From positions 102,900 through 166,899 of the forward strand of contig NZ_JBKBSM010000001.1 of the NCBI RefSeq assembly GCF_046291545.1: 64,000 nucleotides of DNA, given 5' to 3'. Shown here one piece after another: positions 2,474-56,283 of this stretch (position 1 is the first letter of the stretch; each line of letters opens with the position of its first letter). The notes beneath the pieces were generated by a model. It was not told where the DNA came from and searched no databases. It saw nothing but the letters and a program-made list of their open reading frames with translations. The stretch comes from Phenylobacterium sp. (GTDB lineage: Bacteria > Pseudomonadota > Alphaproteobacteria > Caulobacterales > Caulobacteraceae). Both the position numbers and the translations under genes were made by a program.

Positions 2474-3230
2474 GGCGAAGGGCATGCGGCTGACAGGCAG
2501 GACGGCGATCGTGACGGGCGGAGCCTCGGGCTTCGGCGAAGGCATCGTGCGCAGGTTCGTCGAGGAGGGCGCGCGGGTGGCGATCGTCGACCTCAACGTT
2601 TCGGCGGCGCAGGCGCTGGCGGGCGAACTGGGCGACGCCGCCATCGCGGTGGGCGCGGACGTGTCCAAGGACGCGGACGTGGCGCGGCTGGCCGCCGAGG
2701 CGGTGCAGAAGCTGGGGCCGGTGGAGATCCTGGTGAACAACGCCGGCGTCGGGCACACGCCGCAGCCGCTGGAGACCCTGTCGGACGCCGACTTCGACCG
2801 GATCTGGGCGGTCAACGTGAAGTCGGTCTACCTGACGGCGCGGCACATCGTGCCGGCGATGAAGGCGGCCAGGCGCGGAGCGATCCTGAACGTCGCCTCG
2901 ACCGGCGGGGTCAGTCCGCGGCCAAACCTGACCTGGTACAACGCCTCCAAGGGCTGGATGATCACCGCCACCCGGGCGATGGCGGTGGAGCTGGCCCCCT
3001 TCGGCGTGCGGGTGAACGCGATCAATCCGGTCGCCGGGGAGACCCCGCTCCTCAAGACCTTCATGGGCGAGGACACCCCCGAGGTGCGGGCCAGGTTCCT
3101 GGCGTCGATCCCGCTGGGGCGGTTCTCGACGCCGGCGGACATGGGCGCGGCCGCGGCGTTCCTGTGCTCGGACGACGCTTCGATGGTGACGGGCGTGGCG
3201 ATGGAGGTCGACGGTGGCCGCTGCATCTGA
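2466..3230 (+). CDS. Short-chain dehydrogenase/reductase (FabG-like)
   Basis: [17 protein letters not shown]; overlaps the ALDH stop. Confidence 0.93.
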
Positions 3231-4326
3231 GCCCTTCCGCCTGCTGGTCCTGCCCGGGGACGGCATCGGCCCGGAGGTGATCGGTCAGACCCTGCGGGTC
3301 GTCGACTGGTTCGGCCGATTCCTCGGGCGGCCCTTTGCGATCAGCCAGGACCTGGTCGGCGGGGCCTGCCTCGACACGCACGGCGTTCCGGTGACGGACG
3401 CGGTGGTGGAGACCGCGCTCAGCGCCGATGCGGTGCTGTTCGGGGCGGTCGGCGGGGAGAAGTGGGACAGTCAGCCCATCCACCTGCGCCCGGAGGCCGG
3501 GCTGCTGCGGCTGCGCAAGGACCTGGACCTCTTCGCCAACCTGCGCCCGGCGATCTGCTATCCGGAGTTGGCCAGCGCCTCGGCGCTGCGGCCGGAACTG
3601 GTCGAGGGGCTCGATATATTGATCATCCGCGAGCTGACCGCCGGGGTCTACTTCGGCGAGCCGCGGGGCGTGGAGACCCTGGCGAACGGCGTGCGCCGGG
3701 CCTTCGACACCCAGGCCTACACCTCCGAGGAGGTGGAGCGGGTGGTGCGGGCGGGGTTCGACATCGCCCGCGGCCGCAACAGGCGCGTGTGCTCGGTGGA
3801 CAAGGCCAACGTGATGCAGACGGGCGCCTTCTGGCGCGAGATCGCCACCGCCGTCGGCCGCGACTATCCCGACGTGGAGCTGACCCACATGTACGCGGAC
3901 AACTGCGCCATGCAGCTGATGCGCCGGCCCAAGCAGTTCGACGTGGTGGTGACCGACAACCTGTTCGGCGACATCCTCTCGGACGCGGCGGCCATGCTGA
4001 CCGGATCGCTCGGCCTCCTGCCCTCGGCCTCGCTGGGAGCGGCGGGCCCGGACGGCGTCCGCAAGGCGCTCTACGAACCGGTGCACGGCTCGGCGCCGGA
4101 CATCGCCGGGCGGGGGCTGGCCAATCCGCTGGCGACGATCCTGTCGTTCGGCATGTGCCTGCGCCACTCGATGCGCGCGCCCGAGGCGGCCGATCGCCTT
4201 GAAGCCGCCGTGCGCCGCGTCCTGGCCCGGGGCGTTCGCACCGCCGACATCGCCCGTCCCGGCGAGGCGGGGGTGTCGACGACGCAGATGACCGACGCCG
4301 TGCTGGCGGAGTTGGATGCGATGTAG
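3214..4326 (+). CDS. leuB: 3-isopropylmalate dehydrogenase (beta-decarboxylating dehydrogenase)
   Basis: [53 protein letters not shown]. Confidence 0.85.
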
Positions 4327-4327: not shown

Positions 4328-4345
4328 TGCTCAATCGGTTGAGCA
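4328..4345. promoter_or_regulatory. Perfect palindrome TGCTCAATCGGTTGAGCA, candidate XRE-cupin operator (site 1)
   Basis: 7-4-7 perfect inverted repeat upstream of the hydrolase-aminotransferase-ABC operon; related copies at 18185 and 18798. Confidence 0.7.
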
Positions 4346-4418
4346 CTAAACCCGGTTGGGCGCCGCGGGACGCGGGACTAGACTTGCGCGCTTGGGGACG
4401 CATTCGGCGGAGGGGGCC

Positions 4419-5423
4419 GTGCTGGCGAAGATCGGAATGGGGGTCTTGATCTTCATCGCGGCGCTCGCCGCCCTGGCGGGGCTGGCTTTCGCTGGGCTCT
4501 ACCGGCCAGACATCCCCTATGAGAAGCTTGAGGCCAAGTACGCCCGGCCGACCTCCCATTTCGCCGACCTGCCCGGCGGGGTGCGCATGCACTACCGCGA
4601 CGACGGTCCGCGCGACGCGCCGGTGGTCATGCTGGTGCACGGCTACGGGGACAGCTTCCTGACCTGGGAGCCCTTCATCGAGCGGCTGTCGCCGAATTTC
4701 CGGGTGATCACCATCGACCTGGCGGGCCACGGCCTGACCCGGGCGCCGGCGGGCTATGCGCCGGACATGGACCGCTTCGCCGAGCAGGTGGACGCCCTGG
4801 CTGCCAAGCTCGACCTGCCTCCCTTCGCCATCGTCGGCAACTCCATGGGGGGAGGCGTGGCCTGGCAGACGGCGGTCAGGTTCCCCGAGCGGGTGAAGGC
4901 GCTGGTGCTGGTGGACGCGGCCGGCTGGCCGGCGGACCCGAACAAGCCGGTCCCGGCCGCCTTCAAGATCCTGCAGAGCGACCTAGGCCGCTTCCTGCTG
5001 CAGCGGATCGAGACCCGGCCGCTGACGGCCCAGGGGCTGAAGATGGACGTGGTCGACGATTCCCTGATCACCCCGGCCTTCGTCGACCGCTGGGTCGAGG
5101 TGCAGCGCGCGCCTGGCCACCGGGCCATCCTGATGGGCGTGCGCCCGGGGCGGCACACCGTCGCCAGCGAAGCGGCGCTGGGCCAGATCAAGGCGCCCAC
5201 CCTGGTGCTGCATGGCGAGCAGGACGTGATCATCGATCCCGCGGACGGCCGCAAGTTCGCCGCCGCCATCCCCGGCGCGGCGCTGATCACCTATCCCAAC
5301 GCCGGCCACCTGCCGCAGTATGAAATCCCCGATCGCTCGGCCGCCGACGTGACGGCCTTCCTCCTGGCGCTGCAGGCCCCGCCCGCCGCGCCCGCCCCGC
5401 AACCCGCCAGGGACCCGGCATGA
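4419..5423 (+). CDS. Membrane-anchored alpha/beta-fold hydrolase
   Basis: N-terminal hydrophobic helix, HGYG, GNSMGG nucleophile elbow, GEQD acid, GH base; GTG 4419 after GGAGGGG (ATG 4437 is an alternative). Confidence 0.88.
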   Translation: MLAKIGMGVLIFIAALAALAGLAFAGLYRPDIPYEKLEAKYARPTSHFADLPGGVRMHYRDDGPRDAPVVMLVHGYGDSFLTWEPFIERLSPNFRVITIDLAGHGLTRAPAGYAPDMDRFAEQVDALAAKLDLPPFAIVGNSMGGGVAWQTAVRFPERVKALVLVDAAGWPADPNKPVPAAFKILQSDLGRFLLQRIETRPLTAQGLKMDVVDDSLITPAFVDRWVEVQRAPGHRAILMGVRPGRHTVASEAALGQIKAPTLVLHGEQDVIIDPADGRKFAAAIPGAALITYPNAGHLPQYEIPDRSAADVTAFLLALQAPPAAPAPQPARDPA

Positions 5424-6748
5424 CCACCCACTTCAAGCCCGCCGCCAATTCGCTGGACGCCTATTGGATGCCGTTCACGCCGAACCGGCGGTTCAAGGCC
5501 GATCCCCGGTTCGTCGAACGCGCCGAGGGCATGCACTACTTCACCCCCGACGGGCGGCGGATCCTGGACGCCACCTCGGGCCTTTGGTGCGTGAACGCCG
5601 GCCACAACCGCCCGCGGATCGTCGAGGCGATCCAGAAGCAGGCGGCCGAGATGGGCTACGCCACCACCTTCAACATGGGCCACCCCAAGGCCTTCGAGTT
5701 CGCCAACCGCCTGGCGGCCCTGGCGCCCGGCGACCTGAACCACGTGTTCTTCACCAACTCCGGCTCCGAGGCGGTCGACACGGCGCTGAAGATCGCCGTC
5801 GCCTACCAGCGCAGCCGCGGCAAGGGGACCAAGACCCGGCTGATCGGCCGCGAGCGCGGCTATCACGGCGTCGGCTTCGGCGGCATCTCGGTGGGCGGCA
5901 TCGTCAAGAACCGCATGTACTTCGGCTCGCTGCTGACCGGGGTGGACCATCTGCCGCACACCCACGACCTGGCGCGCAACGCCTTCTCCCGCGGGCAGCC
6001 CGAGCACGGCGCCGAGCTGGCCGACGAGCTGGAGCGGATCGTCACCCTGCACGACGCCTCCAACATCGCCGCGGTGATCGTCGAGCCGGTGGCCGGCTCG
6101 ACCGGGGTCCTGGTCCCGCCCAAGGGCTATCTGCAGCGCCTGCGGGCGATCTGCGACAAGCACGACATCCTCCTCATCTTCGACGAGGTGATCACCGGCT
6201 TCGGGCGGCTGGGCGCCTCGTTCGCGGCCGAGTACTTCGGCGTGCAGCCGGACATGATCACCATGGCCAAGGGCATCACCAACGCGGCGGTGCCGATGGG
6301 CGCGGTGGCCGTGCGGCCGCACATCTACGAGACCATGCTCGACAACGCCGACGCGCCGATCGAGCTGTTCCACGGCTACACCTATTCGGGCCACCCCTTG
6401 GCCTGCGCGGCCGGGCTGGCGACCCTGGACACCTATCGCGATGAAGACCTGTTCGGCCGCGCCGCGCGCCTGGCGCCGATGTGGGAGGAGGCCCTGCACG
6501 GCCTGGCCGACGCCCGCCACGTGATCGACATCCGCAACCTCGGCCTGATCGGCGGAATCGAGCTGGCGCCGCGTCCCGGCGCGCCGGGGGAACGGGCGAT
6601 GGAGGCGTTCCGCGCCAGCTTCGACCGGGGCCTGCTGGTGCGCGTGACCGGCGACATCATCGCCCTGTCGCCCTCGCTGATCATCGAGGAAGCCCAGATC
6701 GGCGAGATCATGGACACCCTGCGCCAGACCCTGGCCGAGATCGCGTGA
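5420..6748 (+). CDS. Class III omega-amino acid:pyruvate aminotransferase
   Basis: YWMPFT, SGLWCVNAGH, SGSEA, GYHG, FDEVITGFGRLG, AKGITN (PLP Lys), HGYTYSGHP. Confidence 0.93.
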   Translation: MTTHFKPAANSLDAYWMPFTPNRRFKADPRFVERAEGMHYFTPDGRRILDATSGLWCVNAGHNRPRIVEAIQKQAAEMGYATTFNMGHPKAFEFANRLAALAPGDLNHVFFTNSGSEAVDTALKIAVAYQRSRGKGTKTRLIGRERGYHGVGFGGISVGGIVKNRMYFGSLLTGVDHLPHTHDLARNAFSRGQPEHGAELADELERIVTLHDASNIAAVIVEPVAGSTGVLVPPKGYLQRLRAICDKHDILLIFDEVITGFGRLGASFAAEYFGVQPDMITMAKGITNAAVPMGAVAVRPHIYETMLDNADAPIELFHGYTYSGHPLACAAGLATLDTYRDEDLFGRAARLAPMWEEALHGLADARHVIDIRNLGLIGGIELAPRPGAPGERAMEAFRASFDRGLLVRVTGDIIALSPSLIIEEAQIGEIMDTLRQTLAEIA

Positions 6749-8148
6749 GCCCCGCCGCCGGCCATAGGACGAGCGGTCCGGCGGACTATCTCGGCAGCCC
6801 GGTGAGCCCGTGCGAGCCGGCGACGCTGGCGGCCGTCGACGACTTCGTCGGCGGCTTCCTCACCTATGAGCCGCGCGCCCTGGCGGTGCTGAAAGCCGCG
6901 GACGCCGACGCCGAGAGCGCCCTGGCCAACGCCTACGCCGGCGTGCTGCACATGCTGGGCGAGCACATGGCCGCGCCAGCCAAGGCCGCGGCCTACCTGG
7001 GCCGCGCAGAGGCGGCGCCCATGGCCAACGAACGCGAGCGGGGGATCATCGCCTTCCTGCGCGCCTGGATCGCCGACGACATCGACGCGGCCCTGGCGAT
7101 CGCCGACGAGGTGGTGGAGGCCTTTCCCACCGATCTGGCGATGGTCAAGCTCAGCCAGTACCTGAACCTGAACCGCGGCGACTTCCCGGCCATGCTGCGC
7201 ATCACCGACGCGGCGCTGGCGGCCAACTTCGCCGTGCCGCAGCTGCACGGCATGCGGGCCTTCGCCTATGAGCAGTGCCACCTCCTGGCCGACGCGGAAG
7301 CCGCCGCGCGCCAGGCGCTGCACATGCACATCCGCGAGCCCTGGGCGCAGCACGCCCTGGCCCACGTGATGCTGACCCAGGGGCGGATCTCCGAAGGCGG
7401 CGAGTTCATGGACGCGGCCTCGGAGACCTGGGCGGGCCTGAACTCGTTCATGTACACCCACAACTGGTGGCACCTGGCGCTGTTCCACCTGAGCCAGGGC
7501 CGCGGCGAAAGGGTGCTGGAGATCTACGACCGGCACTGCTGGACCCAGGACCGCACCTATTCCCAGGACCAGATCGGCGCAGTGTCGCTGCTCGCCCGCC
7601 TGGAGTTCGCCGGGCTGGAGGTGGGCGAGCGCTGGGCCGGCGTGGCCGAGCACCTAGTGGAGCGGGCCGAGGACGTGGTGCAGCCGTTCCTATCGCTGCA
7701 GTACCTGCTGGGCCTTGCCCGCGCCGGCCGGCCGGAGGCCGAGACGCTGATGGCGGCGATCGAGCGGCGCGTGCACGAGGCGCCGGCGCACAGCCGCCGC
7801 GCCTGGGCCGAGGCGGCCCTGCCGGCCGCCCAGGCGATAATGGCCCTGGAGCGGGGGCGGCCCGGCGCGGCGGTGGAGCGGATGGGCGCGGCCCTGCCCC
7901 GGCTGGTGGAGGTGGGCGGCAGCCATGCGCAGCGCGACCTCTTCGAACAGATCTTCCTGGAAGCCCTGCTGCGGGACGGGCGGCTGTCGCGGGCCCAGCA
8001 GGTGCTGGAGCTGCGCCGCGCCTTCGACCCGGACGGCGTTCCCCTCAACCTGGCCCTGGCGCGGGTCTACGACTCCCTCGGGTTGCCGGAACTGGCGGCC
8101 CGCGCCGCCTCCCGCGCCCTGCGTACCCAAGAAAGGCATGCGTGCTGA
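6745..8148 (+). CDS. TTC38-like tetratricopeptide-repeat protein
   Basis: Helical repeats with 'WAQHALAHV', 'HNWWHLALF' and 'GGSHAQRDLFEQ', recalled as typical of the TTC38 family; overlaps both neighbouring genes. Confidence 0.78.
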   Translation: MSPAAGHRTSGPADYLGSPVSPCEPATLAAVDDFVGGFLTYEPRALAVLKAADADAESALANAYAGVLHMLGEHMAAPAKAAAYLGRAEAAPMANERERGIIAFLRAWIADDIDAALAIADEVVEAFPTDLAMVKLSQYLNLNRGDFPAMLRITDAALAANFAVPQLHGMRAFAYEQCHLLADAEAAARQALHMHIREPWAQHALAHVMLTQGRISEGGEFMDAASETWAGLNSFMYTHNWWHLALFHLSQGRGERVLEIYDRHCWTQDRTYSQDQIGAVSLLARLEFAGLEVGERWAGVAEHLVERAEDVVQPFLSLQYLLGLARAGRPEAETLMAAIERRVHEAPAHSRRAWAEAALPAAQAIMALERGRPGAAVERMGAALPRLVEVGGSHAQRDLFEQIFLEALLRDGRLSRAQQVLELRRAFDPDGVPLNLALARVYDSLGLPELAARAASRALRTQERHAC

Positions 8149-9434
8149 TGCCCCATCCCCGTGAAGACGCCCTGCTCCGCGAGATCGAGGCACGGCGCGA
8201 CGACCTGGTGGCCCTGACCCAGGACCTGATCCGGTTTCCGACGATCAATCCGCCGGGGGACGCCTATCGCCCGTGCGCCGAATACCTGGGCGAGCGGCTG
8301 AAGAAGCGCGGCTTCGCCGTGGAGTACGTGCGGGCGGAAGGCTCGCCGGGGGACTGCGAGGCCTATCCCCGGATCAACGTCATCGCTCGCTGGGAGAGCG
8401 GCCGGCCGGGGCCGTGCGTGCACTTCAACAGCCATATCGACGTGGTATCGGTGGGCGAGGGCTGGACGGTGGACCCCTTCGGCGGGGTGGTGAAGGACGG
8501 CAAGGTCTACGGCCGTGGCGCCTGCGACATGAAGGGGGGTCTGGCCGCCTCGGTGATCGCGGTGGAGGCGCTGATCGATTCCGGCGTCGAGCTGCCGGGC
8601 GCGCTGGAGATTTCGGGCACGGCCGACGAGGAGAGCGGCGGCTACGGCGGGGTCGCGTACCTGGCCGAACGCGGCTGGTTCTCCAAGCCCCGCGTGGATC
8701 ACGTCATCATCCCCGAGCCGCTGAACGTGGACCGGGTGTGCATCGGCCACCGCGGCGTCTGGTGGTCGGAGATCACCACCGAAGGCCACATCGCCCACGG
8801 CTCGATGCCGTTCCTGGGGGACAACGCCGTGCGCCACATGGGCGCGGTGATCGCGGAGCTGGAGCGGCGGATCTTCCCGACCCTGAGCGCGCACCAGACC
8901 TCGATGCCGGTGGTGCCGGAAGGCGCGCGCACGCCGACGCTGAACATCAACTCCATCCACGGCGGGGAGCCGGACGTCACCGGCTCGGGCCTGCCCGCGC
9001 CGGTGGTCCCGGACAGCTGCCGGATCGTGCTGGATCGCCGGCTGCTGATTGAGGAGGACCTCGACGAAGTGAAGGCGCAGATGCGCTCGGTGCTCGACGG
9101 CCTCACCCAGACCCGGCCGAACTTCCGCTACCGGATGCGCGACCTGTTCGAGGTGCGTCCCTCGATGACCGAGCCGGACCGGCCGGTGGTGCGCATGACC
9201 TGCGAGGCCATCGAGCAGGTGCTGGGCAAGCCCGCCGACATCTGTTGCTCGCCAGGCACCTACGACCAGAAGCACATCGACCGCATCGGCAAGCTGCGGG
9301 ACTGCATCGCCTATGGCCCCGGAATCCTGGACCTGGCGCACCAGCCGGACGAGTACGTCGGCATCGACGACATGGTGAACTCGGCCAAGGTGATGGCCCT
9401 GTCGGCCTATGCCCTGCTGACCGGCCAGGCGTGA
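8148..9434 (+). CDS. M20 (ArgE/DapE-family) deacylase/amidohydrolase
   Basis: NSHIDVV, GRGACDMKGG, DEESGG, PEP, HGSMP, AHQPDEYV. Confidence 0.92.
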   Translation: MPHPREDALLREIEARRDDLVALTQDLIRFPTINPPGDAYRPCAEYLGERLKKRGFAVEYVRAEGSPGDCEAYPRINVIARWESGRPGPCVHFNSHIDVVSVGEGWTVDPFGGVVKDGKVYGRGACDMKGGLAASVIAVEALIDSGVELPGALEISGTADEESGGYGGVAYLAERGWFSKPRVDHVIIPEPLNVDRVCIGHRGVWWSEITTEGHIAHGSMPFLGDNAVRHMGAVIAELERRIFPTLSAHQTSMPVVPEGARTPTLNINSIHGGEPDVTGSGLPAPVVPDSCRIVLDRRLLIEEDLDEVKAQMRSVLDGLTQTRPNFRYRMRDLFEVRPSMTEPDRPVVRMTCEAIEQVLGKPADICCSPGTYDQKHIDRIGKLRDCIAYGPGILDLAHQPDEYVGIDDMVNSAKVMALSAYALLTGQA

Positions 9435-9441
9435 GCCGCCG

Positions 9442-12003
9442 TTGAGCCGCAGCGCCGACCATAGGGGCCGCTGGGCAGGGCTGCTGGCCCTGCTCTTCGG
9501 CGTGCTGCTGCTGGCGAGCCCGGCGGCGGCGCGCGACGTGCTGCGGATCGGCCAGCAGCTCGAGCCGCCGAACCTGGACCCGACCGCCGGCGCCGCGGCG
9601 GCCGTGGACGAGGTGGTCTACGGCAACGTCTTCGAGGGCCTGATCCACATCGGACGCAACGGCGGCGTGGAGCCGCGGCTGGCAGAGTCCTGGGAGATCT
9701 CGCCGGACGGCAGGATCTATGTCTTCCACCTGCGGCGGGGGGTGCGCTTCCACGACGGCGAGCCGTTCGACGCCAGCGTTGTGAAGTTCACCCTGGACCG
9801 GGCGCGGGCGCCGGAGTCCGCCAACGCCCAGAAGGCCAGTTTCGAGGTGATCGAGCGGGTCGATGTGGTGGACGCCCAGACCGTCCGCCTGGTGCTGAAG
9901 CGGCCGGACACGCGCCTGCTCTACGTGCTGGGCTGGGGCGATGCGGTGATGGTTGCGCCCAGGAGCGCCGCCGACAACGCCGTGACCCCGGTCGGGACAG
10001 GCCCCTACCGGTTCGTGGAATGGCGGCGGGGCGAATCGATCACGCTCGAGCGCTTCGCCGACTACTGGGGCCCTGCGCCCCGCATCGGACGGGTGGTGTT
10101 CAAGTTCATCGCCGACCCGACCGCCGCCTTCGCCGCGGTGAAGGCCGGGGACCTGGACGCCTTCCCCAATTTCCCCGCGCCGGAGAACCTGGCCGACCTT
10201 GCCGCCGACCCGCGCTTTCGGGTGGTGGTCGGTTCGACCGAAGGCGAGACGATCCTGGCGCTGAACAACGCCAAGCCGCCCTTCGACAAGCTGAAGGTCC
10301 GCCAGGCGATCAGCTACGCCATCGACCGCAAGGCGATCATCCAGGGGGCGATGTTCGGCTACGGCAAGCCGATCGGCAGCCATTTCCCGCCGCACAGCCC
10401 CGACTATGTCGACCTGACCGGACTCTATCCGCACGATCCGGCCAAGGCGCGGGCGCTGCTGGCGGAAGCGGGCTATCCCGACGGCTTCGAGGCGACGCTG
10501 AAGCTGCCGCCGCCCAGCTACGCCCGGCGGGGCGGGGAAATCGTCGCCGCGCAACTGGCCCAGATCGGCGTTCGGGTGAAGATCGAGAATCTGGAGTGGT
10601 CCCAGTGGCTGGACCAGGTGCTCGGCAACAAGAGCTTCGACATGACCATCGTCTCGCACACCGAGCCGATGGACTACGACATCTATGCGCGGCCGGACTA
10701 CTACTTCGGCTATCGCAGCCCGGCCTACGACGCGCTCATGGCGAAGCTCAACGCCGCCGTGGATCCGGCCGAGCGGCGCGCCCTGCTGGCGCAGATCCAG
10801 CGCAAGCTCGCCGACGATGCGGTGAACGGCTTCCTCTTCCAGTTCCCCAAGCTGAACGTGTGGGACGCCAAGCTGGAAGGCATGTGGGTCGACGCGCCGG
10901 TGCAGGCCAACGAGGCGGCCGAGGCCTGGTACGACGAACCGGGCGCGGCGGCCGCGCCGGCGGCCAGCCGCCGGACCGGCGGCGCGGGCGCCCTGCTCGG
11001 CTATGGCGTCCTCGCCGCCTGTGCGGCCTTCGCCCTCTACGGGTTCCTGCGGCTGGGGGCGGCCTATGTGGCGGGCCGGCTGGTGTCCCTGGCGCTGACC
11101 TTCCTGGCCGCCACGGTGGTCGTCTTCGCACTGATCCAGATCGTGCCGGGCGATCCGGCCGCCTTCATGATGGGGCTGAACGCAAACCCCGAGGCGGTGG
11201 CCGCCCTGCGCGCGCAGATGGGCCTGGATGCGCCGGCGCCCGAGCGTTACCTGACCTGGATCGCGGGCTTGGCGCACGGCGACTTCGGCGCCAGCTACAC
11301 CTACCGCGTGCCGGTGGCCCAGTTGATCGCCGAGCGGATGGCGGTGTCGCTGCCCCTGGCGCTCCTGGCCCTGGCGATCAGCCTGGCCGTGGCCCTGCCG
11401 ATTGGCGTGTTCGCCGCAAGCCGCCGGGGCAAGGCCTCCGACGCCCTGGTGATGGGCGCGACCCAGGTGGGCATGGCGCTTCCCAACTTCTGGCTGGCGA
11501 TGCTGCTGGTGCTGGTGTTCGCCATCGGCCTTCGCTGGCTGCCGGCGGGCGGCTTCCCGGGCTGGGACGCGGGACTCTGGCGCGGGCTGAAGGCGCTGGT
11601 CCTGCCGGCGACCGCGCTGGCCCTGCCGCAGGCGGCGATCCTGGCCCGGGTGCTGCGCTCGGCGCTGGTGGAGACCCTCGGCGAGGACTATGTGCGCACC
11701 GCGCGGGCCAAGGGCCTCTCGGAGAGCCAGGTCATCCGCCGCCACGCCCTGCGCAACGCCATGATCCCGATGCTGACGATCCTGGGCCTGCAGATCCCCT
11801 TCCTGCTGGCCGGGGCGGTGATCGTGGAGAACGTCTTCTTCCTGCCTGGGCTCGGACGTCTGGTGTTCCAGGCGATCACCCAGCGCGACCTGATCGTCGT
11901 GCAGAGCGTGGTGGTGCTGCTGGTCTTCGCCGTGGTGCTGGTGAACTTCCTGGTCGACCTGGGCTATGCGGCCGTCGACCCGCGGCTGAGGCGGGGGCGA
12001 TGA
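9442..12003 (+). CDS. Peptide ABC transporter: family-5 substrate-binding protein fused to a DppB-type permease
   Basis: Signal peptide; LDP..VYEGL-like and GTGPY SBP motifs; Ala-rich linker and one extra TM helix; then PGDPA...RTARAKGL permease, all in one frame. Confidence 0.88.
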   Translation: MSRSADHRGRWAGLLALLFGVLLLASPAAARDVLRIGQQLEPPNLDPTAGAAAAVDEVVYGNVFEGLIHIGRNGGVEPRLAESWEISPDGRIYVFHLRRGVRFHDGEPFDASVVKFTLDRARAPESANAQKASFEVIERVDVVDAQTVRLVLKRPDTRLLYVLGWGDAVMVAPRSAADNAVTPVGTGPYRFVEWRRGESITLERFADYWGPAPRIGRVVFKFIADPTAAFAAVKAGDLDAFPNFPAPENLADLAADPRFRVVVGSTEGETILALNNAKPPFDKLKVRQAISYAIDRKAIIQGAMFGYGKPIGSHFPPHSPDYVDLTGLYPHDPAKARALLAEAGYPDGFEATLKLPPPSYARRGGEIVAAQLAQIGVRVKIENLEWSQWLDQVLGNKSFDMTIVSHTEPMDYDIYARPDYYFGYRSPAYDALMAKLNAAVDPAERRALLAQIQRKLADDAVNGFLFQFPKLNVWDAKLEGMWVDAPVQANEAAEAWYDEPGAAAAPAASRRTGGAGALLGYGVLAACAAFALYGFLRLGAAYVAGRLVSLALTFLAATVVVFALIQIVPGDPAAFMMGLNANPEAVAALRAQMGLDAPAPERYLTWIAGLAHGDFGASYTYRVPVAQLIAERMAVSLPLALLALAISLAVALPIGVFAASRRGKASDALVMGATQVGMALPNFWLAMLLVLVFAIGLRWLPAGGFPGWDAGLWRGLKALVLPATALALPQAAILARVLRSALVETLGEDYVRTARAKGLSESQVIRRHALRNAMIPMLTILGLQIPFLLAGAVIVENVFFLPGLGRLVFQAITQRDLIVVQSVVVLLVFAVVLVNFLVDLGYAAVDPRLRRGR

Positions 12004-12824
12004 GCGCGCTTCGCCGCAACGCCGGCCTCGCCCTGGGCGCGGCCCTGACCCTGGCCTTCCTGTCCGCGGCGCTGCTGTCGTTCGTGTGGACGCCGTACGA
12101 CGTGGCGGATCTCGACATCGCCGGGCGCCTGCAGGCGCCCTCGGCCGCCCACTGGCTGGGCACCGACCACTTCGGCCGGGACGTCGCCTCGATGATCCTG
12201 GTCGGGGCGCGCAATTCCCTGGCGGTGGCCCTGGTGGCGGCGGGGCTGGGCATGCTGGTGGGCGTGCCCGCGGGGCTGGCGGCGGCCGCGCGCAGGGGCT
12301 GGCTGGACGAGCTGGTGATGCGCACCAACGACCTGATCTTCGCCTTCCCCTCGCTCCTGCTGGCGATCATGATCACGGCGGTGGCCGGGCCGGGGGCGGT
12401 CAACGCGATCATCGCCATCGGCGTCTTCAACATCCCGGTGTTCGCCCGGGTGGCGCGGGGCGCGGCCCTGTCGCTGTGGACGCGCGATTACGTGCTGGCG
12501 GCGCGGGTGGCGGGCAAGGGACCGGCGGCGATCTCGCTGCAGCACATCCTGCCCAACATCGCCGGGCTTCTGATCGTGCAGGGCACCATCCAGTTCTCCA
12601 TGGGCGTGCTGGCCGAGGCGGGCCTGTCCTACGTGGGGCTGGGCGCCCAGCCGCCGATCCCGAGCTGGGGCCGGATGCTGAACGAGGCCCAGACCATGAT
12701 CGGCTTCGCCCCGTGGCTGGCGATCTTCCCGGGGCTGGCGGTGGTGACCACGGTGATCGGCCTCAACCTCCTGGGCGACGGGCTGCGCGACGCCCTGGAC
12801 CCCAAGCTCGACCGGAGCCGCTGA
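12000..12824 (+). CDS. Peptide ABC transporter permease (DppC-type)
   Basis: HWLGTDHFGRDV, HILPN, EAGLSYVGLG, SWGRML, NLLGDGLRDALDP; ATGA overlap. Confidence 0.93.
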   Translation: MSALRRNAGLALGAALTLAFLSAALLSFVWTPYDVADLDIAGRLQAPSAAHWLGTDHFGRDVASMILVGARNSLAVALVAAGLGMLVGVPAGLAAAARRGWLDELVMRTNDLIFAFPSLLLAIMITAVAGPGAVNAIIAIGVFNIPVFARVARGAALSLWTRDYVLAARVAGKGPAAISLQHILPNIAGLLIVQGTIQFSMGVLAEAGLSYVGLGAQPPIPSWGRMLNEAQTMIGFAPWLAIFPGLAVVTTVIGLNLLGDGLRDALDPKLDRSR

Positions 12825-12825
12825 G

Positions 12826-14433
<1,608 letters not shown>

Positions 14434-14498
14434 GCCCCGCCGCCAGATCCGGCCCCGCGCCTGCAGCGGGTGTCGGGCGGCGGCGCACGGGAAAGCCC

Positions 14499-15503
14499 CT
14501 AGCCCTTGAGCGCCTCGTGTACGCCGCGGGCGATGGCGCGGGCGGTGCAGTCGGCGGCGGCCGAGCCGATCGCGGCGAGGCGGACGGCGCGATCGTCGCC
14601 GTGGCCTATCGAGCAGGCGCCGGTGGCGATGGCGAACAGGGTGTCGCCGTCGAAGGGCATGTGCGCCGGCCGCACCGCCCGGGCGAGGCCGTCGTGGGCC
14701 ATCATCGCCAGGCGCTTGCATTCGGCGGTGGTGAGGTCGGCGGTGGTGGCGACGACGCCGATGGTGGTGGCCGCGCCCGGTTGCAGGCGCCCCAGGCTGG
14801 CCAGCCGGCCGTCGTCGGGCACCGGGTCGATGGCGCCGACCGCGGGGTCGGGCCGGCCGCCGCCGAACTCCCCGTCGATCTCGAAGGGCCAGGCCCAGAA
14901 GGCGCGGCCGTCGGGGGTCATCACCGAGCCCACGGGATTGGCGACGATCAGCGCCCCCGCCACAAGGCCCCCGCCCATGTCCAGGGAGGCCGAGCCGACC
15001 CCGCCCTTGATCAGGCCGGCCATGGCGCCCAGTCCTGCGCCCGCCGAGCCCAGGGCGAACTGCGGCCCGGCGGCGTCCAGCGAAGCCATGCCGAGGCGGC
15101 GGTAGGGCGGATCCAGCCCCCAGGCCTTGTCCCCCGGGTTGGCGAGGTCGTGCAGGACCGCGGCGGGGACGATGGGGATGGCCGGAGACCCGGGCTTGAG
15201 ATGCAGACCGACGCCGCGGGCGGACAGGGCGGCGACCACCCCGTCGGCGGCGGCGAGGCCGAACACCGAACCGCCGGACAGAACGACGGCATGGGCGCGG
15301 CCGACCAGGTTCTCGGCCGCCAGGGTCTCGGTCTCCCGCACGCCGGGCCCGCCGCCGCGCACGTCGACGGAGGCGTTGTAGAAGCCCTCGCAGACCAGGG
15401 TGGTGACGCCGGTGCCGGCGGCGGAGTCGTCGGCGTGGCCGACCATGAGGCCGGCCACGTCGGTGATCAGGTTCCGGGGCCCGGGGCGGGGAAGCTGGCG
15501 CAT
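14499..15503 (-). CDS. DmpA/NylC-family (peptidase S58/P1) hydrolase, cytoplasmic copy
   Basis: NLITDVAGL.VGH, DVRGGGPG.RET, GGSVFGL, DGLARA, DGDTLFA; ATG 15503. Confidence 0.9.
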   Translation of the reverse strand: MRQLPRPGPRNLITDVAGLMVGHADDSAAGTGVTTLVCEGFYNASVDVRGGGPGVRETETLAAENLVGRAHAVVLSGGSVFGLAAADGVVAALSARGVGLHLKPGSPAIPIVPAAVLHDLANPGDKAWGLDPPYRRLGMASLDAAGPQFALGSAGAGLGAMAGLIKGGVGSASLDMGGGLVAGALIVANPVGSVMTPDGRAFWAWPFEIDGEFGGGRPDPAVGAIDPVPDDGRLASLGRLQPGAATTIGVVATTADLTTAECKRLAMMAHDGLARAVRPAHMPFDGDTLFAIATGACSIGHGDDRAVRLAAIGSAAADCTARAIARGVHEALKG

Positions 15504-15547
15504 GTCCGCGCCCTTCTGCCTCCTCGCGCCCGGGATGGAAAGCGGCC

Positions 15548-17737
15548 TCAGTAGGCGTAGGTCAGCCGCACCCCGTAGGTGCGCGGCGTGCCCCGCTGAC
15601 CCACCTCGGCTTCGGTGAAGAAGTTCCGGGTGAGGTCGTACTCCTCGTCGAACAGGTTGCGCACCCAGATCGACGCGCCCCAGGGGCCGTCGGCCGGCGT
15701 CACGCCGATGCTGGCGTTGGCCAGCCAGTAGGCCGGGATGTCGTACTTCTCGCCCAGCCAGGAGACCTGGTCGTCGCGCCAGCTGTAGTTCAGCTCGGAC
15801 CGGACCACGAAGTCGCCGACGTCCGCCGTGTAGGCGACGGAGCCGCCGTAGGTCCACTTGCCGAAGGGGATCTCCTGGCCGGACTTGTCGATGTAGACCT
15901 CCACGCCGGCGGCGCGGGTGGCGGGCACGTCGAGATCGCGGAACTCCTTGAACTCGCCGTCCTTGTAGCTGGCGCTCTGGCTGATGGTCAGGCCCGCGGT
16001 GGGGGCCCACACCAGCTCAAGCTCGCCGCCCCAGATCTCCGACTTGGGCGCGTTGACGAAACTGCCGACCAGCCCGTTGGCGGTGAGCCGGGCCGAGAGG
16101 ACCTGCTGGTCGCGGTAGTCGTAGAAGAAGGCCGCGCCGTTGAACTGCAGGGCCGCGGTCGGGTTGGTCTTGAAGCCGACCTCGTAGGCGTAGAGCGTCT
16201 CCGGCTTGAAGGCGGCGATCGCCGCGCGGTTGGCCGTGTTGTAGGTGGTGAAGCCCCCCGACTTCACGCCCTTGCTGGCCGAGGCGTAGATCAGGACGTC
16301 GGCCATCGGCTTGTATTCGAGCGCGATCTTCCCGGTGGTCGGGTTCATGTCGGTCTCGACCGAGCTCTCCGGCAGGGCCGTGGCGCCGCCGAAGGCCGAG
16401 GTGAAGTCCTGCAGCTCGCGGGTCTCCTCCTCGTAGCGCAGGCCGCCGATCAGCTTCCACTGGTCGTTGAAGGCGTATTCGGCCTGGCCGAAGACGCTCG
16501 CGGAGGTCACTTCCTGGGTGTAGCGGACGCGGGCGGTGAGGCCGTAGTTATCCAGGAAGTCGGAGTAGTAGCGCTCGCGCAGGACCTGACGGGAGACATA
16601 GACCCCGGCCACCCACTGCAGCGGCCCCTCGGTGTTGGACGCCAGGCGCAGCTCGTCCGACCAGACCTTCACCTTGGAGCCGAAGAAGACGTCGGCGGCG
16701 ATGGAGGAGGAGGCGTCGTAGTCGCCGTATTCCTCGCGGTGCAGGTAGTCGTAGGCGGCGATGTTGGTGAGCTTGACCGCCCCCAGGTCCCAGGAGGCGT
16801 TGGCCGAGGCGCCCCAGGTCTTGTTGTCGCGGCCAGGCTTGGAATCGACTTCCAGGCGGGTGTCGGCGACGAGGCCGGGCGAGATGCTCCAGCCGGTGCC
16901 GGTGGTGTCGGTGTCGGCCGGGATGGTCGGGCCGGCGCCGAAGCGGGTGGAGAACGGCTCAGTCAGGTAGAGGCCGATGTTCTCGGACTTGTCGATGCCG
17001 GCGTGAACGTCGAGCATCACGCCCAGGTTCGGCGTCACATCGATGTCGAGCATCGCCCGGGCCGCGACCTTGTCGGCGTCGCCCAGGGAATCGCCGGTTT
17101 CCCGGTTGTGCTGCCAGGCGCCGCCCTGCTCGGTCCCGAAGGACAGGCGGCCGCGGATCGATTCGCTGATCGGGCCGGAGATGTAGCCCTCGGCCTTCAG
17201 CGCCTCGAATCGGCCGAACTCCACCGAAGCGCCGGCCGCCACTTCGGCGGTGGGCATGCCGGTGATGAAGTTGATCGCCCCGCCGGTGGTGTTGCGGCCG
17301 TAGAGCGTGCCCTGCGGCCCGCGCAGCACCTCGACCCGCTGGACGTCGAAGATCAGACCCTGGGTCATGACCGGGATCGGATAGGCGACCTCGTTCACAT
17401 AGACGCCGACGGTGGGCGTGTTGTTGGTGGCGTAGTCCTGGAAGCCGACGCCGCGCAGGCGGAACTGGGCCGCGCCCGAGCCGAAGGCGGGCTCGATGTC
17501 CAGGCTCGGCGTCGCGGTCTGCAGCTGATTGACGTTGGTGATGCCCCGCTGGGCGAGGTCGTCGCCGCCGAGCACGGACAGGGCGATGCCCACGTCCTGG
17601 GCCGCCTGCTCCCGCCGCTGGGCCGTGACCACGATTTCTTCGACCGAGGCCTCGGCGGGCCTGGCCTGCGCCGCAGCGGCCCCGGCATGGGCGGCGCCCA
17701 CGATCCCGACGGCTGCGCTCACTAGGAAACGCTTCAT
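15548..17737 (-). CDS. TonB-dependent receptor
   Basis: Signal peptide, EEIVVTAQRR, RVEVLRGPQGTLYGRNTTGGAINF plug, C-terminal PRTYGVRLTYAY. Confidence 0.95.
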   Translation of the reverse strand: MKRFLVSAAVGIVGAAHAGAAAAQARPAEASVEEIVVTAQRREQAAQDVGIALSVLGGDDLAQRGITNVNQLQTATPSLDIEPAFGSGAAQFRLRGVGFQDYATNNTPTVGVYVNEVAYPIPVMTQGLIFDVQRVEVLRGPQGTLYGRNTTGGAINFITGMPTAEVAAGASVEFGRFEALKAEGYISGPISESIRGRLSFGTEQGGAWQHNRETGDSLGDADKVAARAMLDIDVTPNLGVMLDVHAGIDKSENIGLYLTEPFSTRFGAGPTIPADTDTTGTGWSISPGLVADTRLEVDSKPGRDNKTWGASANASWDLGAVKLTNIAAYDYLHREEYGDYDASSSIAADVFFGSKVKVWSDELRLASNTEGPLQWVAGVYVSRQVLRERYYSDFLDNYGLTARVRYTQEVTSASVFGQAEYAFNDQWKLIGGLRYEEETRELQDFTSAFGGATALPESSVETDMNPTTGKIALEYKPMADVLIYASASKGVKSGGFTTYNTANRAAIAAFKPETLYAYEVGFKTNPTAALQFNGAAFFYDYRDQQVLSARLTANGLVGSFVNAPKSEIWGGELELVWAPTAGLTISQSASYKDGEFKEFRDLDVPATRAAGVEVYIDKSGQEIPFGKWTYGGSVAYTADVGDFVVRSELNYSWRDDQVSWLGEKYDIPAYWLANASIGVTPADGPWGASIWVRNLFDEEYDLTRNFFTEAEVGQRGTPRTYGVRLTYAY

Positions 17738-18184
17738 GACTATCCCCGTTCTTCGACGCGCCTGCGCGCGCTCGCGACATGCTCCTCTGGAGCCCATTGG
17801 CCCGCCCGCCGGCGGCGGGACGAGCCTCTCCAGTCTAACCGCTCGATGAAGGATTCTTGAAGACTTACCGGCGTCGAGCGTTGGATGGCTAACAATCAGG
17901 CCTGTTCACGGTCAACGCGCCGAATACAGAACCTCCCCAAGATTCCATTTTTCGACCAATAAAATTGCGCACCCATCCAAATGCTAAGCAACAATATTTC
18001 GAGGGCGGGCTTTTATCGACGAATTCAATCACGTAAGGAGAAGCGGCCGGGTGGGGCAAGTAAGCACCCGCCACGTTCCTTCGCTCTAGTTGTTCGACGG
18101 CATGATCACTCGGCCGCAAGGCGGCGAACAGACTATTTGTTTGAATCGCCAAGCCATTGATTTTGCCCAACTAATGTCGCGACA

Positions 18185-18202
18185 TGCTCAATATTCCGAG
18201 CA
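18185..18202. promoter_or_regulatory. TGCTCAATATTCCGAGCA, candidate XRE-cupin operator (site 2)
   Basis: Two mismatches to the site-1 palindrome; at the far end of the AT-rich region upstream of the TonB receptor. Confidence 0.55.
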
Positions 18203-18230
18203 GGGACATCGTCCGTGGACCGCGCGCGGT

Positions 18231-18779
18231 TCAGAAGGTTGGCGGCGTGCAGGCGCTGACGACGATGCAGACGCCGTCGCCGACGTTGCGGAACCGGTGA
18301 GGGATGGTGCTCTTGAAAAGATAAGCCTCGCCGGCCTTCAGCACCCGGGTCTGCTCGCCGACGGTCACCTCGAGACGACCCTGGATGATGACGCCGCCCT
18401 CTTCACCCTCATGGGTGAGCATCACGCGGCCGCTGTCCGATCCGGGCTGGTAGGTCTCGTAGAGGATCTGCAGGGTGGATAGGCCGTTTCCCGCGCCGAC
18501 CTGCCGGTAAGACACGTCGCCGCTTGAGATTTCCGCCAGCTCGTCGGCGCGGAAGAAGACCTGGGCCTCGGTCTTCAGCTCGAAGCTGAAGAACTCGGCC
18601 AGGGACAGGCCGGCGGCGTCGAGCAGCCGCTTGAGCGAGCCGATCGAGGGATTGGTCCGGCCGCCCTCGATCAGGGAGACGGTGCTGGACGGCACGCCGG
18701 CCCGGCGGGCCAGGGCGCGCTGGGTGATGCCCAGCCGCGTGCGCACCGTACGCAGCCGCGCGCCGACTTCCTGGTCCAT
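18231..18779 (-). CDS. XRE-HTH/cupin transcriptional regulator, PuuR/PauR-like
   Basis: HTH 'QRALARRAGV..STVSLIEGG.TNPSIGSL', cupin 'HEGEEGGVIIQG', 'PHRFRN...TPPTF'. Confidence 0.88.
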   Translation of the reverse strand: MDQEVGARLRTVRTRLGITQRALARRAGVPSSTVSLIEGGRTNPSIGSLKRLLDAAGLSLAEFFSFELKTEAQVFFRADELAEISSGDVSYRQVGAGNGLSTLQILYETYQPGSDSGRVMLTHEGEEGGVIIQGRLEVTVGEQTRVLKAGEAYLFKSTIPHRFRNVGDGVCIVVSACTPPTF

Positions 18780-18797
18780 GGGCGCCTCCGATCAGCC

Positions 18798-18815
18798 TGC
18801 TCAAAACGATGAGCG
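18798..18815. promoter_or_regulatory. TGCTCAAAACGATGAGCG, candidate XRE-cupin operator (site 3, autoregulatory position)
   Basis: Two mismatches to site 1; about 19 bp upstream of the regulator start. Confidence 0.6.
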
Positions 18816-19061
18816 ATCCGGCCAGAATGATGCGCTAATCAGCGATCTAGCCATCGCAAATAATAGGGTTGCGACTGCAGGAACAGTCGGGCCGAATGCT
18901 GTGCGCATGTGTCGTCCGCAGGGCGGGATGGTCAGATCGCAGGCACGGCCCCCCGGCCGGCCGCGCGCGGACGCCTCCACCCCGGCGGGACCCGCAAACC
19001 GGTTGCGCCGCCGCGCGAACCTGACTTCAACCGAGCCCTCGCCCCCAGTCCGGAGCACCAG

Positions 19062-20195
19062 ATGAACCGCCGCGCCCTTCTCGCCTCCCTGATGACCGCG
19101 GCCGCGGGGGCTTCGGCCGCCCGCGCCGCCGAGTCGGCGCCGCCGCGGGCCGTGATGCTCCCGGGCAAGGCCGGTCCCCTGAACCTGATCACCGACGTGC
19201 CCGGGCTGAAGGTGGGCCAGGCCGAGGACGCCAAGGCCCGCACCGGGGTGACCGTGATCCTGCCCGACGAGGCGGCGGTGGCGGCGGTGGACGTGCGCGG
19301 CGGCGGCCCGGGCACCCGCGAGACCGACGCCCTGGACGTGGAGAACCTGGCCCACGTGGCGCACGCGATCTGCCTGTCCGGCGGCTCGGTCTACGGCCTG
19401 GCGGCGGCGGACGGGGTCTGCGCCTGGCTGGGCGCCCAGGGACGCGGCTTCGGCATGGGCGCCCTGCCGCCGGGGGCGCCGCCCTCGCCGATCGTGCCGG
19501 CCGCGATCCTGTTCGACATCCCCAACGGCGGCGACAAGAACTGGGGCCTCGAGCCGCCTTATCGCCGCCTCGGCCTGGAAGCGGTGCAGGCGACGGGGAC
19601 GATGTTCAAGCTGGGCACCGCCGGCGCCGGCTACGGCGCGCGCTCGGGCGGGTTGAAGGGCGGGCTCGGCTCGGCCTCGGCGGTCAGCGCCGACGGGATG
19701 ACCGTGGGCGCGATCGTGGCGGTCAACAGCGCCGGCTCGGTGCTGGCGCCCGGCACCCGGCAGTTCTGGGCCGCGCCGCTGGAGATCGGCCGGGAGTTCG
19801 GCGGTCTCGGCGTCGACCGCCTCGCAGCCCTTCCCGACGAGTGGGGCCCGGCCAAGGCCGACCCGCAGGCGCGCCAGAACACCACAATCGCCTGCATCGC
19901 CACGGACGTGCGGCTGGAGCCCGGCGAGATCAAGCGGGTGGCCATCATGGCCCAGGACGGCCTGGCCCGCGCCATCCGTCCGATCCATGCTCCGTTCGAC
20001 GGCGACGTTGTCTTCGCCCTGTCCACCGGCAAGCGCGAGGCGGCCGAGCCGCGCGCCTTCACCGTGGCGCGAATCGGGGCCCTGGCCGCCGACGTCCTCG
20101 CCCGGGCCGTGGCCCGCGGCGTCTACGAGGCGACCACCTGGCCCGGAAGCCCGACCAAGGCCTGGCGCGACCTGCCGGCGGACGCAAATCCTTAA
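19062..20195 (+). CDS. DmpA/NylC-family hydrolase with Tat-like signal (periplasmic copy)
   Basis: MNRRALL twin-Arg leader ending in AARA; NLITDVPGL, DVRGGGPGTRET, QNTTIACIATD, DGDVVFA. Confidence 0.9.
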   Translation: MNRRALLASLMTAAAGASAARAAESAPPRAVMLPGKAGPLNLITDVPGLKVGQAEDAKARTGVTVILPDEAAVAAVDVRGGGPGTRETDALDVENLAHVAHAICLSGGSVYGLAAADGVCAWLGAQGRGFGMGALPPGAPPSPIVPAAILFDIPNGGDKNWGLEPPYRRLGLEAVQATGTMFKLGTAGAGYGARSGGLKGGLGSASAVSADGMTVGAIVAVNSAGSVLAPGTRQFWAAPLEIGREFGGLGVDRLAALPDEWGPAKADPQARQNTTIACIATDVRLEPGEIKRVAIMAQDGLARAIRPIHAPFDGDVVFALSTGKREAAEPRAFTVARIGALAADVLARAVARGVYEATTWPGSPTKAWRDLPADANP

Positions 20196-56226: not shown

Positions 56227-56251
56227 CGCGCACACCCCGCAACCGGAACAC

Positions 56252-56283
56252 GAGCCCGGCGCGACCCCGCGCCGGGCTCTTTG
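56252..56283 (+). terminator. Intrinsic terminator after dapD
   Basis: Perfect 12-bp stem GAGCCCGGCGCG/CGCGCCGGGCTC followed by TTTG. Confidence 0.7.

Follow-up and report, generated by a model that had tools for sequence, protein, structure and literature searches.

In a 64-kb stretch of a Phenylobacterium genome (contig NZ_JBKBSM010000001.1, positions 102,900 to 166,899; hereafter, the window), we read the genes between approximately positions 118 and 20195 as one regulated system for the uptake and catabolism of coenzyme A (CoA) fragments, pantetheine and pantothenate, a reading that draws on homology and gene context and to which we assign a probability of about 55%. The core of this cluster is a regulon of an XRE-cupin regulator, in which a conserved predicted operator joins a TonB-dependent receptor, two hydrolases of the S58 family, a peptide-type ATP-binding cassette (ABC) importer, a hydrolase of the M20 family and a beta-alanine-type aminotransferase. 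A first-pass annotation of positions 4328 to 20195 had proposed such a regulon, acting on a non-standard amide that contains an omega- or beta-amino acid, through import, trimming, further import, hydrolysis and transamination, and this logic, along with the proposed substrate class, is supported by the data presented here. Its left boundary is not, as it cuts off genes for an aldehyde dehydrogenase (ALDH), a short-chain dehydrogenase (SDR) and a LeuB-like protein (1025 to 4326), which in relatives form a unit with the M20 gene, behind the same operator. Nor are its candidate substrates, beta-peptides, acyl-polyamines and nylon oligomers, which explain neither this dehydrogenase trio nor two juxtapositions with the pantothenate kinase gene coaX.

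The argument for CoA fragments is that they represent the one compound family that would cover all of these features: a cut of the type made by the enzyme ThnT yields cysteamine and pantothenate, and a second amide cut yields pantoate along with beta-alanine, the substrate of the aminotransferase (AptA). In the proposed route, the receptor would carry a CoA-derived compound (pantetheine, pantethine or a phosphorylated form) across the outer membrane, and an S58 enzyme with predicted export via the twin-arginine (Tat) pathway would cut the amide between cysteamine and beta-alanine in the periplasm, producing pantothenate and cysteamine. The family-5 ABC importer would then move pantothenate and/or pantetheine into the cytoplasm, where the second S58 paralogue would make the equivalent cut, and the M20 enzyme, or an amidase-signature enzyme in some relatives, would split pantothenate into pantoate and beta-alanine. 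AptA would transaminate beta-alanine to malonate semialdehyde, while the SDR, the ALDH and the LeuB-like protein would oxidize pantoate to 4-dehydropantoate, then to 3,3-dimethylmalate and finally to 2-oxoisovalerate and CO2. The XRE-cupin protein most likely acts as a repressor at 18-bp palindromes, to be released by a pathway metabolite, and the acid-branch operon (ALDH-SDR-LeuB-like) would in this organism be additionally controlled by a GntR-type regulator of its own.

The first line of evidence is conservation of the gene neighborhood. We compared 80 loci, all obtained by scanning species-representative genomes once with the importer's binding domain (55-81% identity) and originating from Phenylobacterium, Caulobacter, Brevundimonas, Steroidobacteraceae and other Gammaproteobacteria, and Rhizobiales, and in these the cluster genes do co-occur, as the first-pass annotation would have it. 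The importer is most often accompanied by the M20 gene (about 61 of the 80 loci), followed by the receptor (about 52), S58 (about 37), AptA (about 27), a tetratricopeptide repeat (TPR) protein (about 26), an alpha/beta hydrolase (about 22) and the regulator (about 21), all of these counts being lower bounds since the loci end 10 kb to each side. The arrangements are variable. One example is Brevundimonas, in which the order, on one strand, is ALDH-SDR-LeuB-M20-XRE-receptor-AptA-(receptor-PhoD-PAP2)-importer-S58, the bracketed genes encoding a second TonB receptor, a PhoD phosphatase/phosphodiesterase with a Tat signal and a PAP2 acid phosphatase, the latter two situated between this receptor and the importer (about 7360-9700 in locus L005 and 7363-8943 in L013), which fits dephosphorylation of CoA or 4'-phosphopantetheine. 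In three loci (L032, L034, L006) the regulator gene is divergent from ALDH-SDR-LeuB-M20. Another example is Caulobacter, with an amidase gene adjoining S58 in place of M20, and a third is the Steroidobacteraceae, in which a receptor-hydrolase-TPR-M20-importer operon is convergent with coaX-S58. The product of coaX is the type III pantothenate kinase (TIGR00671, PF03309), and in four loci of the Steroidobacteraceae type (L024, L046, L077, L079) its gene is co-directional with that of the cytoplasmic S58, with gaps of 0-7 nucleotides (nt). The other juxtaposition, in L088, is an independent arrangement, birA-coaX with the ALDH gene 28 nt downstream. As to other neighbors, acpXL/lpxXL genes, identified by eye beside the Rhizobiales loci, belong to what we take to be a well-known unrelated cluster and were judged chance neighbors, while valine-catabolism genes downstream of the Rhizobiales loci are suggestive but too distant to count.

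The second line of evidence is the shared operator, an observation of the first-pass annotation that is confirmed. An 18-bp palindrome, TGCTCAA-N4-YBGAGCR, is found at 4328, 18185 and 18798 (O1, O2 and O3, respectively), every copy being between genes, and its exact core, GCTCAA-N6-GAGC, has 6 matches in the 64 kb versus 0.21 expected, a number reached in 0 of 100 shuffles. O1 lies 2 nt past the LeuB-like stop codon and about 80 nt ahead of the alpha/beta hydrolase gene, O2 is 29 nt past the stop codon of the regulator and about 450 nt ahead of the receptor start, and O3 is 19 nt ahead of the regulator start and about 250 nt ahead of the gene for the exported S58. The closest relatives, two Phenylobacterium metagenome-assembled genomes (L001 and L002), possess all three sites at matching places (O1 is kept in L003 as well), with the arms conserved and the spacers different, a pattern that amounts to a phylogenetic footprint. 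Brevundimonas-type loci have a looser form of the motif, G[AC]TC[AG]-N6-[CT]GA[GT]C. Over 22 loci, the density of this relaxed operator in intergenic DNA is 10 times that in coding DNA, and 37 of its 38 intergenic matches belong to promoters of the cluster. These matches lie ahead of the receptor, about 25 nt past the regulator gene (Brevundimonas-type loci included), upstream of AptA by 114-165 nt and of ALDH by about 130 nt and, in Phenylobacterium, upstream of the hydrolase gene by about 82 nt. Two further loci agree, one site being located where the regulator and an amidase-ALDH-SDR-LeuB operon diverge. As the operator is found at the ALDH promoter (upstream of ALDH in L017, L018, L020 and L081, and upstream of amidase-ALDH-SDR-LeuB in L084) as well as at the receptor and AptA promoters, both branches of the system make up a single regulon in relatives.

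The regulator combines an N-terminal helix-turn-helix with a C-terminal cupin domain, as is typical of the XRE-cupin family, and palindromic predicted operators are present at its own and at target promoters; we infer that it binds the palindrome. The known system most similar in this respect is the puu putrescine regulon of Escherichia coli, in which PuuR, also an HTH_3 plus Cupin_2 protein, controls amine/omega-amino acid catabolism through palindromic operators located at several promoters, its own among them. However, the operator sequence and the target genes differ, and the score of the window protein against the PuuR equivalog NF007408 is 152.4 bits, with a cut-off of 211, making it PuuR-like but not PuuR. 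In L001 (19813-21519) and L002 (18439-21328), the XRE-cupin gene is divergent not from an exported S58 gene but from an operon of the methylamine-dehydrogenase type, with a heavy-chain gene (PF06433) followed by genes that are mauE-, mauD- and mauA-like by eye, and the operator lies in between.

Additional conserved elements are apparent around the operators. An operator-like site within the LeuB-like gene, GGCTCGATATATTGATCA, is written in the rare codons GAT-ATA-TTG (ATA accounts for 3 of 278 isoleucine codons and TTG for 13 of 608 leucine codons) and is identical in L001 (4076-4093) and L002 (5427-5444), these three loci being the ones in which LeuB directly precedes O1, whereas Brevundimonas, without the site, encodes the same peptide in common codons. 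About 720 bp upstream of O1, this site may act as an additional operator, permitting looping or forming a roadblock. A further element, AAACAAATAGTCTGTTC, is an invariant block in the alignment of the window with L001 and L002, and in L001 it is a perfect GAACA..TGTTC palindrome. It is carried by the receptor leader, which is unusually long (about 450 nt) and AT-richer. No Rfam family matches this leader, no known RNA element in positions 1-24000 comes near threshold, and scans for sigma-70 promoters and terminators around the operators produced nothing useful. In the intergenic region between the GntR and ALDH genes (772-1024), a block conserved with L001, CACCCTGCGTCAAAGACCGGCGCGACGCCAGAGACCGGCGG, with GACCGGCG repeated within it, is a candidate GntR operator. 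By its domains and position, the GntR/FCD protein is the probable local regulator for the acid branch of this organism.

The third line of evidence comes from the ALDH-SDR-LeuB-like trio. These genes overlap at their junctions (the SDR start overlaps the ALDH stop by 8 nt) and are contiguous with either M20 or an amidase gene in every context examined, in Brevundimonas, Phenylobacterium, Hyphococcus and four metagenome lineages. M20 adjoins the trio in many lineages, and an amidase-signature enzyme is present in its stead in L084 and in the Caulobacter loci. For the LeuB-like protein, the contexts of relatives were looked up and a neighbor-joining tree was built. The window protein belongs to a clade for which the contexts examined are, in 8 of 8 cases, ALDH, then SDR, then LeuB, flanked by M20 or amidase, examples being Hyphococcus lacteus (L082), a compact ALDH-SDR-LeuB-M20-XRE (L087), amidase-ALDH-SDR-LeuB (L084) and birA-coaX-ALDH-SDR-LeuB-M20-importer-S58 (L088). 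The biosynthetic context of leuC, leuD or asd is found neither here nor in any of these eight, while it is typical of the sister clade (leuC-leuD-leuB-asd or leuB-asd; L083, L086). Being a conserved four-gene unit with M20, behind the same operator in Brevundimonas-type loci, L081 and L084, the trio thus belongs to the system.

The types of these enzymes correspond, one by one, to the steps of a known pathway. Snell's group reportedly showed in 1966 that Pseudomonas oxidizes pantoate to 2-oxoisovalerate via aldopantoate and dimethylmalate, using an alcohol and an aldehyde dehydrogenase along with a decarboxylating dehydrogenase by which D-malate is accepted as well. Accordingly matched to these steps, the SDR would be a pantoate 4-dehydrogenase (EC 1.1.1.106), the ALDH a 4-dehydropantoate (aldopantoate) dehydrogenase (EC 1.2.1.33) and the LeuB-like protein a 3,3-dimethylmalate dehydrogenase (EC 1.1.1.84), an activity recorded as acting on (R)-malate too, while the M20 enzyme would be the pantothenase (EC 3.5.1.22) that splits pantothenate into pantoate and beta-alanine. 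For each of these four steps a suitable enzyme class is encoded, and the four genes are contiguous in many lineages. The pathway of Pseudomonas P-2 and P. fluorescens (Snell, Airas) calls for an amide hydrolase, an alcohol and an aldehyde dehydrogenase, a decarboxylating 3-alkylmalate dehydrogenase and a means of beta-alanine disposal, the very gene families that are side by side here, but it is known as enzyme activities only, and its link to the window is one of reaction logic, not of homology. The pantothenase protein was still unidentified according to a 2023 publication (PMC10393543), which cites the Snell series on pantothenate degradation, making a sequence comparison with the Pseudomonas enzyme impossible. 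In the literature searched, there is no gene-level report for the pantothenase, pantoate, dehydropantoate or dimethylmalate dehydrogenase steps, nor of pantothenate catabolism as such, a bacterial catabolic pantetheinase or an XRE-cupin/beta-alanine regulon, in agreement with the remark in the first-pass annotation that it recognized no described pathway in this combination.

As to the initial cut, both S58 proteins, 53% identical to each other, are well above the gathering score of PF03576 (23.9), and their naming as DmpA/NylC-type hydrolases is correct at the level of this family. A closer relationship to DmpA or BapA is not borne out by the PDB sequence search, as no chain of either enzyme is matched by these proteins at E <= 1e-5. 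For both, ThnT is the best solved relative, with E 2.5e-59 and 204 bits for the exported copy (residues 31-372 versus ThnT 43-416) and E 2.8e-46 and 161 bits, near full length, for the cytoplasmic copy, while NylC and the nylon hydrolases match far more weakly (about 60 bits versus 160-204; 63 versus 204 for NylC with the exported copy). The self-cleavage site of the exported copy, QN|TTIACIATD, aligns to LN|TTLAVVATD of ThnT, thus sharing the Asn|Thr cleavage and nucleophile site. The cytoplasmic copy retains the Thr-Thr pair, but it has Ala before the nucleophile Thr (approximately residue 240), as does its counterpart in L001, whereas the residue at this position is Asn in ThnT and in 34 of 36 relatives, a substitution that may change self-processing. 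The exported copy possesses a leader, MNRR..AxA, common to the Brevundimonas orthologues, from which export via the Tat pathway is predicted. We propose, from these homologies, that the two enzymes are pantetheine hydrolases, one periplasmic and one cytoplasmic. ThnT of Streptomyces cattleya (PDB 3S3U, 3TM1) shares with them the S58/Ntn fold family, but it serves antibiotic biosynthesis in an actinomycete, supplying cysteamine in the thienamycin pathway, while the window enzymes are part of a proteobacterial transport and catabolic regulon, with one copy exported. By analogy, the reaction would be that of the animal pantetheinase, vanin-1, which also converts pantetheine to pantothenate and cysteamine outside the cytoplasm, and vanins are members of the nitrilase superfamily, not homologous to S58. 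A 2026 review (PMC13602198) calls ThnT the only known microbial pantetheine hydrolase.

It is at this point that the substrates originally suggested must be weighed, carnosine-like beta-peptides, nylon-type omega-aminoacyl oligomers or acyl-polyamines, with ALDH-SDR-LeuB as unrelated neighbors. S58 membership with the weak matches to NylC and nylon hydrolases, the transaminase for beta-alanine and omega-amino acids, the PuuR-like regulator and, in L001 and L002, the amine-dehydrogenase operon that shares the operator would all agree with such substrates. We nevertheless consider them unlikely, given the ranking of ThnT over NylC and the lack of DmpA/BapA matches, and given that they leave unexplained the ALDH-SDR-LeuB-M20 unit, the operator upstream of ALDH, the coaX juxtapositions and the replacement of M20 by an amidase immediately upstream of ALDH.

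The remaining enzymes of the operon fit the pantothenate route to different degrees. The aminotransferase belongs to the AptA equivalog (NF052567), its best solved relative is the beta-alanine-pyruvate transaminase 4B98 (481 bits), and it is, by these matches, a beta-alanine/omega-amino acid:pyruvate aminotransferase, an AptA orthologue. With BauA (PA0132) of Pseudomonas and AptA of Caulobacter it shares this equivalog-level match, and it differs in being encoded inside a transporter and hydrolase operon, while Pseudomonas bauA is part of a beta-alanine operon controlled by a LysR regulator. The M20 enzyme is a member of the uncharacterized PRK13013 group, and it is probably not a housekeeping DapE since dapD is paired with a second M20 gene, probably that of the true DapE, elsewhere in the window (55387-59023, with a 176-aa gene and a 206-aa gene, the latter on the opposite strand, between them). 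The alpha/beta hydrolase has the nucleophile motif GNSMG and partial matches, under cut-offs, to enol-lactonase models, and its function as a lactonase or thioesterase is a guess. The TPR protein, labeled TTC38-like in the first-pass annotation, has no match in Pfam, NCBIfam or the PDB sequences that would bear out this label, and its relatives are named only "tetratricopeptide repeat protein"; its AlphaFold2 model (pLDDT 94.5), a predicted all-alpha TPR solenoid, matches generic TPR folds only (TM-score no higher than 0.52). In 34 homologues it nevertheless has seven invariant histidines (H168, H179, H203, H207, H239, H243, H394), along with invariant E176, E185, E198, D262, D275, D398 and C178, polar residues suggesting a ligand- or metal-binding or catalytic site rather than a scaffold.

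The importer has all the parts of the Dpp/Opp type: an SBP_bac_5 substrate-binding protein (SBP), two BPD_transp_1 permeases, two ABC_tran domains and an oligo_HPY tail. It is unusual in that the SBP and the DppB-type permease form a single 853-aa open reading frame (ORF), joined in frame by an extra hydrophobic membrane helix, a fusion (810-870 aa) that is kept in Caulobacterales, Steroidobacteraceae, Hyphococcus and metagenome relatives, while in Rhizobiales the binding protein and the permease are encoded by separate genes. The best solved relatives of the binding domain are AgaA, a binder of agropinic acid, and GsiB/YliB, which does not decide the ligand, with weaker matches to NikA and CntA, and the receptor has a sub-threshold match to a siderophore-receptor model. 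These similarities would be expected if the system took up and recycled an opine-type or polycarboxylate metallophore, with the hydrolases dismantling it and the isocitrate/isopropylmalate-type dehydrogenase acting on its acid part. This is, however, very improbable: no metal-responsive regulator or other metal-related gene is identified in the cluster, the regulator is of the PuuR-like, amine-catabolism type, and the ThnT-like enzymes, AptA and the coaX links would be left unexplained.

Several observations weigh against pantetheine and pantothenate as the substrates. ALDH and SDR are generic families, and the ALDH reaches no specific NCBIfam equivalog. The LeuB-like protein exceeds the cut-off for the LeuB equivalog, and a comparison of clade-specific residues with housekeeping LeuB revealed 4 differences, none clearly at the substrate pocket. 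Similarity to ThnT, at approximately 50% identity, does not fix substrate specificity. The Pseudomonas pantothenase reportedly acts through an acyl-enzyme, which suits an amidase or S58 better than an M20 metalloenzyme, making the assignment of bonds to hydrolases tentative. The proposed route has no step for the alpha/beta hydrolase or the TPR protein, and no gene for cysteamine disposal is found in the window. The Rhizobiales loci possess M20 and the importer only, and, with the L001 and L002 regulator facing a methylamine-dehydrogenase-like operon, the regulon may be a wider amine regulon. Finally, sequence runs containing the window are of metagenome DNA only (hot spring, sludge, subsurface), with zero RNA runs.

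Some of the same observations would suit general scavenging of unusual small peptides or N-acyl amino acids (D-amino-acid-containing or cell-wall-derived, for example), with LeuB an ordinary leucine enzyme and ALDH and SDR syntenic by descent: the LeuB score and the unchanged active site, the reduced Rhizobiales set, the peptidase families M20 and S58, and the Dpp-type importer, with glutathione, dipeptides or opines as the ligands of its nearest solved relatives. We see little likelihood in this explanation. That several lineages should place a housekeeping leucine gene at the end of catabolic operons under operator control would be unexpected, and constitutive leucine synthesis is poorly compatible with leuB ending such an operon (L084) or being part of ALDH-SDR-LeuB-M20-XRE (L087). 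The uniform contexts of the LeuB clade, as opposed to the classical leu/asd contexts of its sister clade, point in the same direction, as does L077, in which a dehydrogenase of a different subfamily, the tartrate/D-malate dehydrogenase type (TIGR02089, 561 bits), replaces the LeuB-like protein, ahead of ALDH-SDR.

The layout of the locus is presented in Table 1. As the window has a G+C content of 71%, ORF lists are swamped by spurious frames; the gene map was made from codon-position GC and with a codon-likelihood caller trained on clear genes, and it is confirmed by Pfam and NCBIfam; all of the genes named in the first-pass annotation were located in this way. The plus-strand operon (4419-14433, about 10 kb) is tightly packed, with 4-nt overlaps or gaps of no more than 7 nt, and runs from the alpha/beta hydrolase through AptA, the TPR protein, M20, the SBP-permease fusion and the second permease to the double ATPase. 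The receptor and the cytoplasmic S58 (17737-14499, minus strand) are convergent with it, and the right end of the cluster consists of the XRE-cupin gene and, divergent from it, the gene for the S58 with the twin-arginine leader.

Table 1. Genes and sequence elements of the cluster (positions in the window).
Feature	Position	Strand or place	Basis and remarks
GntR/FCD-family regulator	118-771	-	Pfam GntR + FCD; divergent from ALDH operon; same place in L001
NAD(P) aldehyde dehydrogenase (ALDH)	1025-2473	+	Pfam Aldedh, 518 bits
Short-chain dehydrogenase (SDR)	2466-3230	+	Pfam adh_short
LeuB-like, isopropylmalate-dehydrogenase family	3214-4326	+	TIGR00169, 459 bits (cut-off 353)
Operator-like in-gene site GGCTCGATATATTGATCA	3608-3625	inside LeuB-like gene	fits relaxed operator
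Operator O1 TGCTCAATCGGTTGAGCA	4328-4345	intergenic	perfect palindrome
Alpha/beta-fold hydrolase, N-terminal membrane helix	4419/4431-5423	+	Pfam Abhydrolase_1, 120 bits
Class III aminotransferase (AptA)	5420-6748	+	NCBIfam NF052567, 766 bits (cut-off 500)
All-helical TPR protein	6745-8148	+	no Pfam match
M20 ArgE/DapE-type hydrolase	8142/8163-9434	+	PRK13013, 738 bits
SBP_bac_5 fused to DppB-type permease, 853 aa	9442-12003	+	Pfam SBP_bac_5 + BPD_transp_1_N + BPD_transp_1
DppC-type permease	12000-12824	+	
Fused double ABC ATPase with oligo_HPY tail	12826-14433	+	
Cytoplasmic S58 hydrolase	14499-15503	-	Pfam PF03576, 159.7 bits
TonB-dependent outer-membrane receptor	15548-17737	-	plug + beta-barrel
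Second conserved element AAACAAATAGTCTGTTC	18126-18142	-	in receptor leader
Operator O2 TGCTCAATATTCCGAGCA	18185-18202	intergenic	
XRE-HTH + cupin regulator (PuuR-like)	18231-18779	-	Pfam HTH_3/HTH_31 + Cupin_2
Operator O3 TGCTCAAAACGATGAGCG	18798-18815	intergenic, divergent promoter region	
S58 hydrolase with MNRRALL twin-arginine leader	19062-20195	+	Pfam PF03576, 198.8 bits

Downstream (20253-21580), the cluster is followed by a FliK-like orphan with a Flg_hook domain and by a gene of 88 aa that matches FlhB/YscU in the C-terminal portion only, both ahead of a gene for a hybrid histidine kinase, with no further flagellar genes nearby. These genes and the hybrid kinase gene are unrelated to the cluster.

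The system is, by type, a receptor-plus-ABC catabolic regulon of the ordinary sort, and the interest lies in its probable substrate and in the prospect of genes for four enzymes known only as activities and for a catabolic pantetheine hydrolase. A broader proposition, to which we would give somewhat less than even odds, is that the cluster is the missing gene set for CoA-fragment breakdown, providing sequences for the four enzymes known as activities since 1966, the first catabolic microbial pantetheine hydrolases, TonB-dependent uptake, periplasmic dephosphorylation of extracellular CoA or 4'-phosphopantetheine in Brevundimonas and, in the TPR protein, a new kind of component. If true, genes would be assigned to the textbook-era pathway of vitamin B5 degradation, and the first non-biosynthetic microbial pantetheine hydrolases would be at hand. 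This would have a bearing on environmental and host-associated bacteria that compete for, or destroy, vitamin B5 and CoA precursors, and on pantetheine salvage by organisms possessing only the type III pantothenate kinase, which, to our knowledge, does not accept pantetheine. It would also bear on the annotation of thousands of genes now labeled "LeuB," "DapE/ArgE" or "P1 peptidase." The operator and the regulator, for their part, define a testable regulon, mainly in Caulobacterales.

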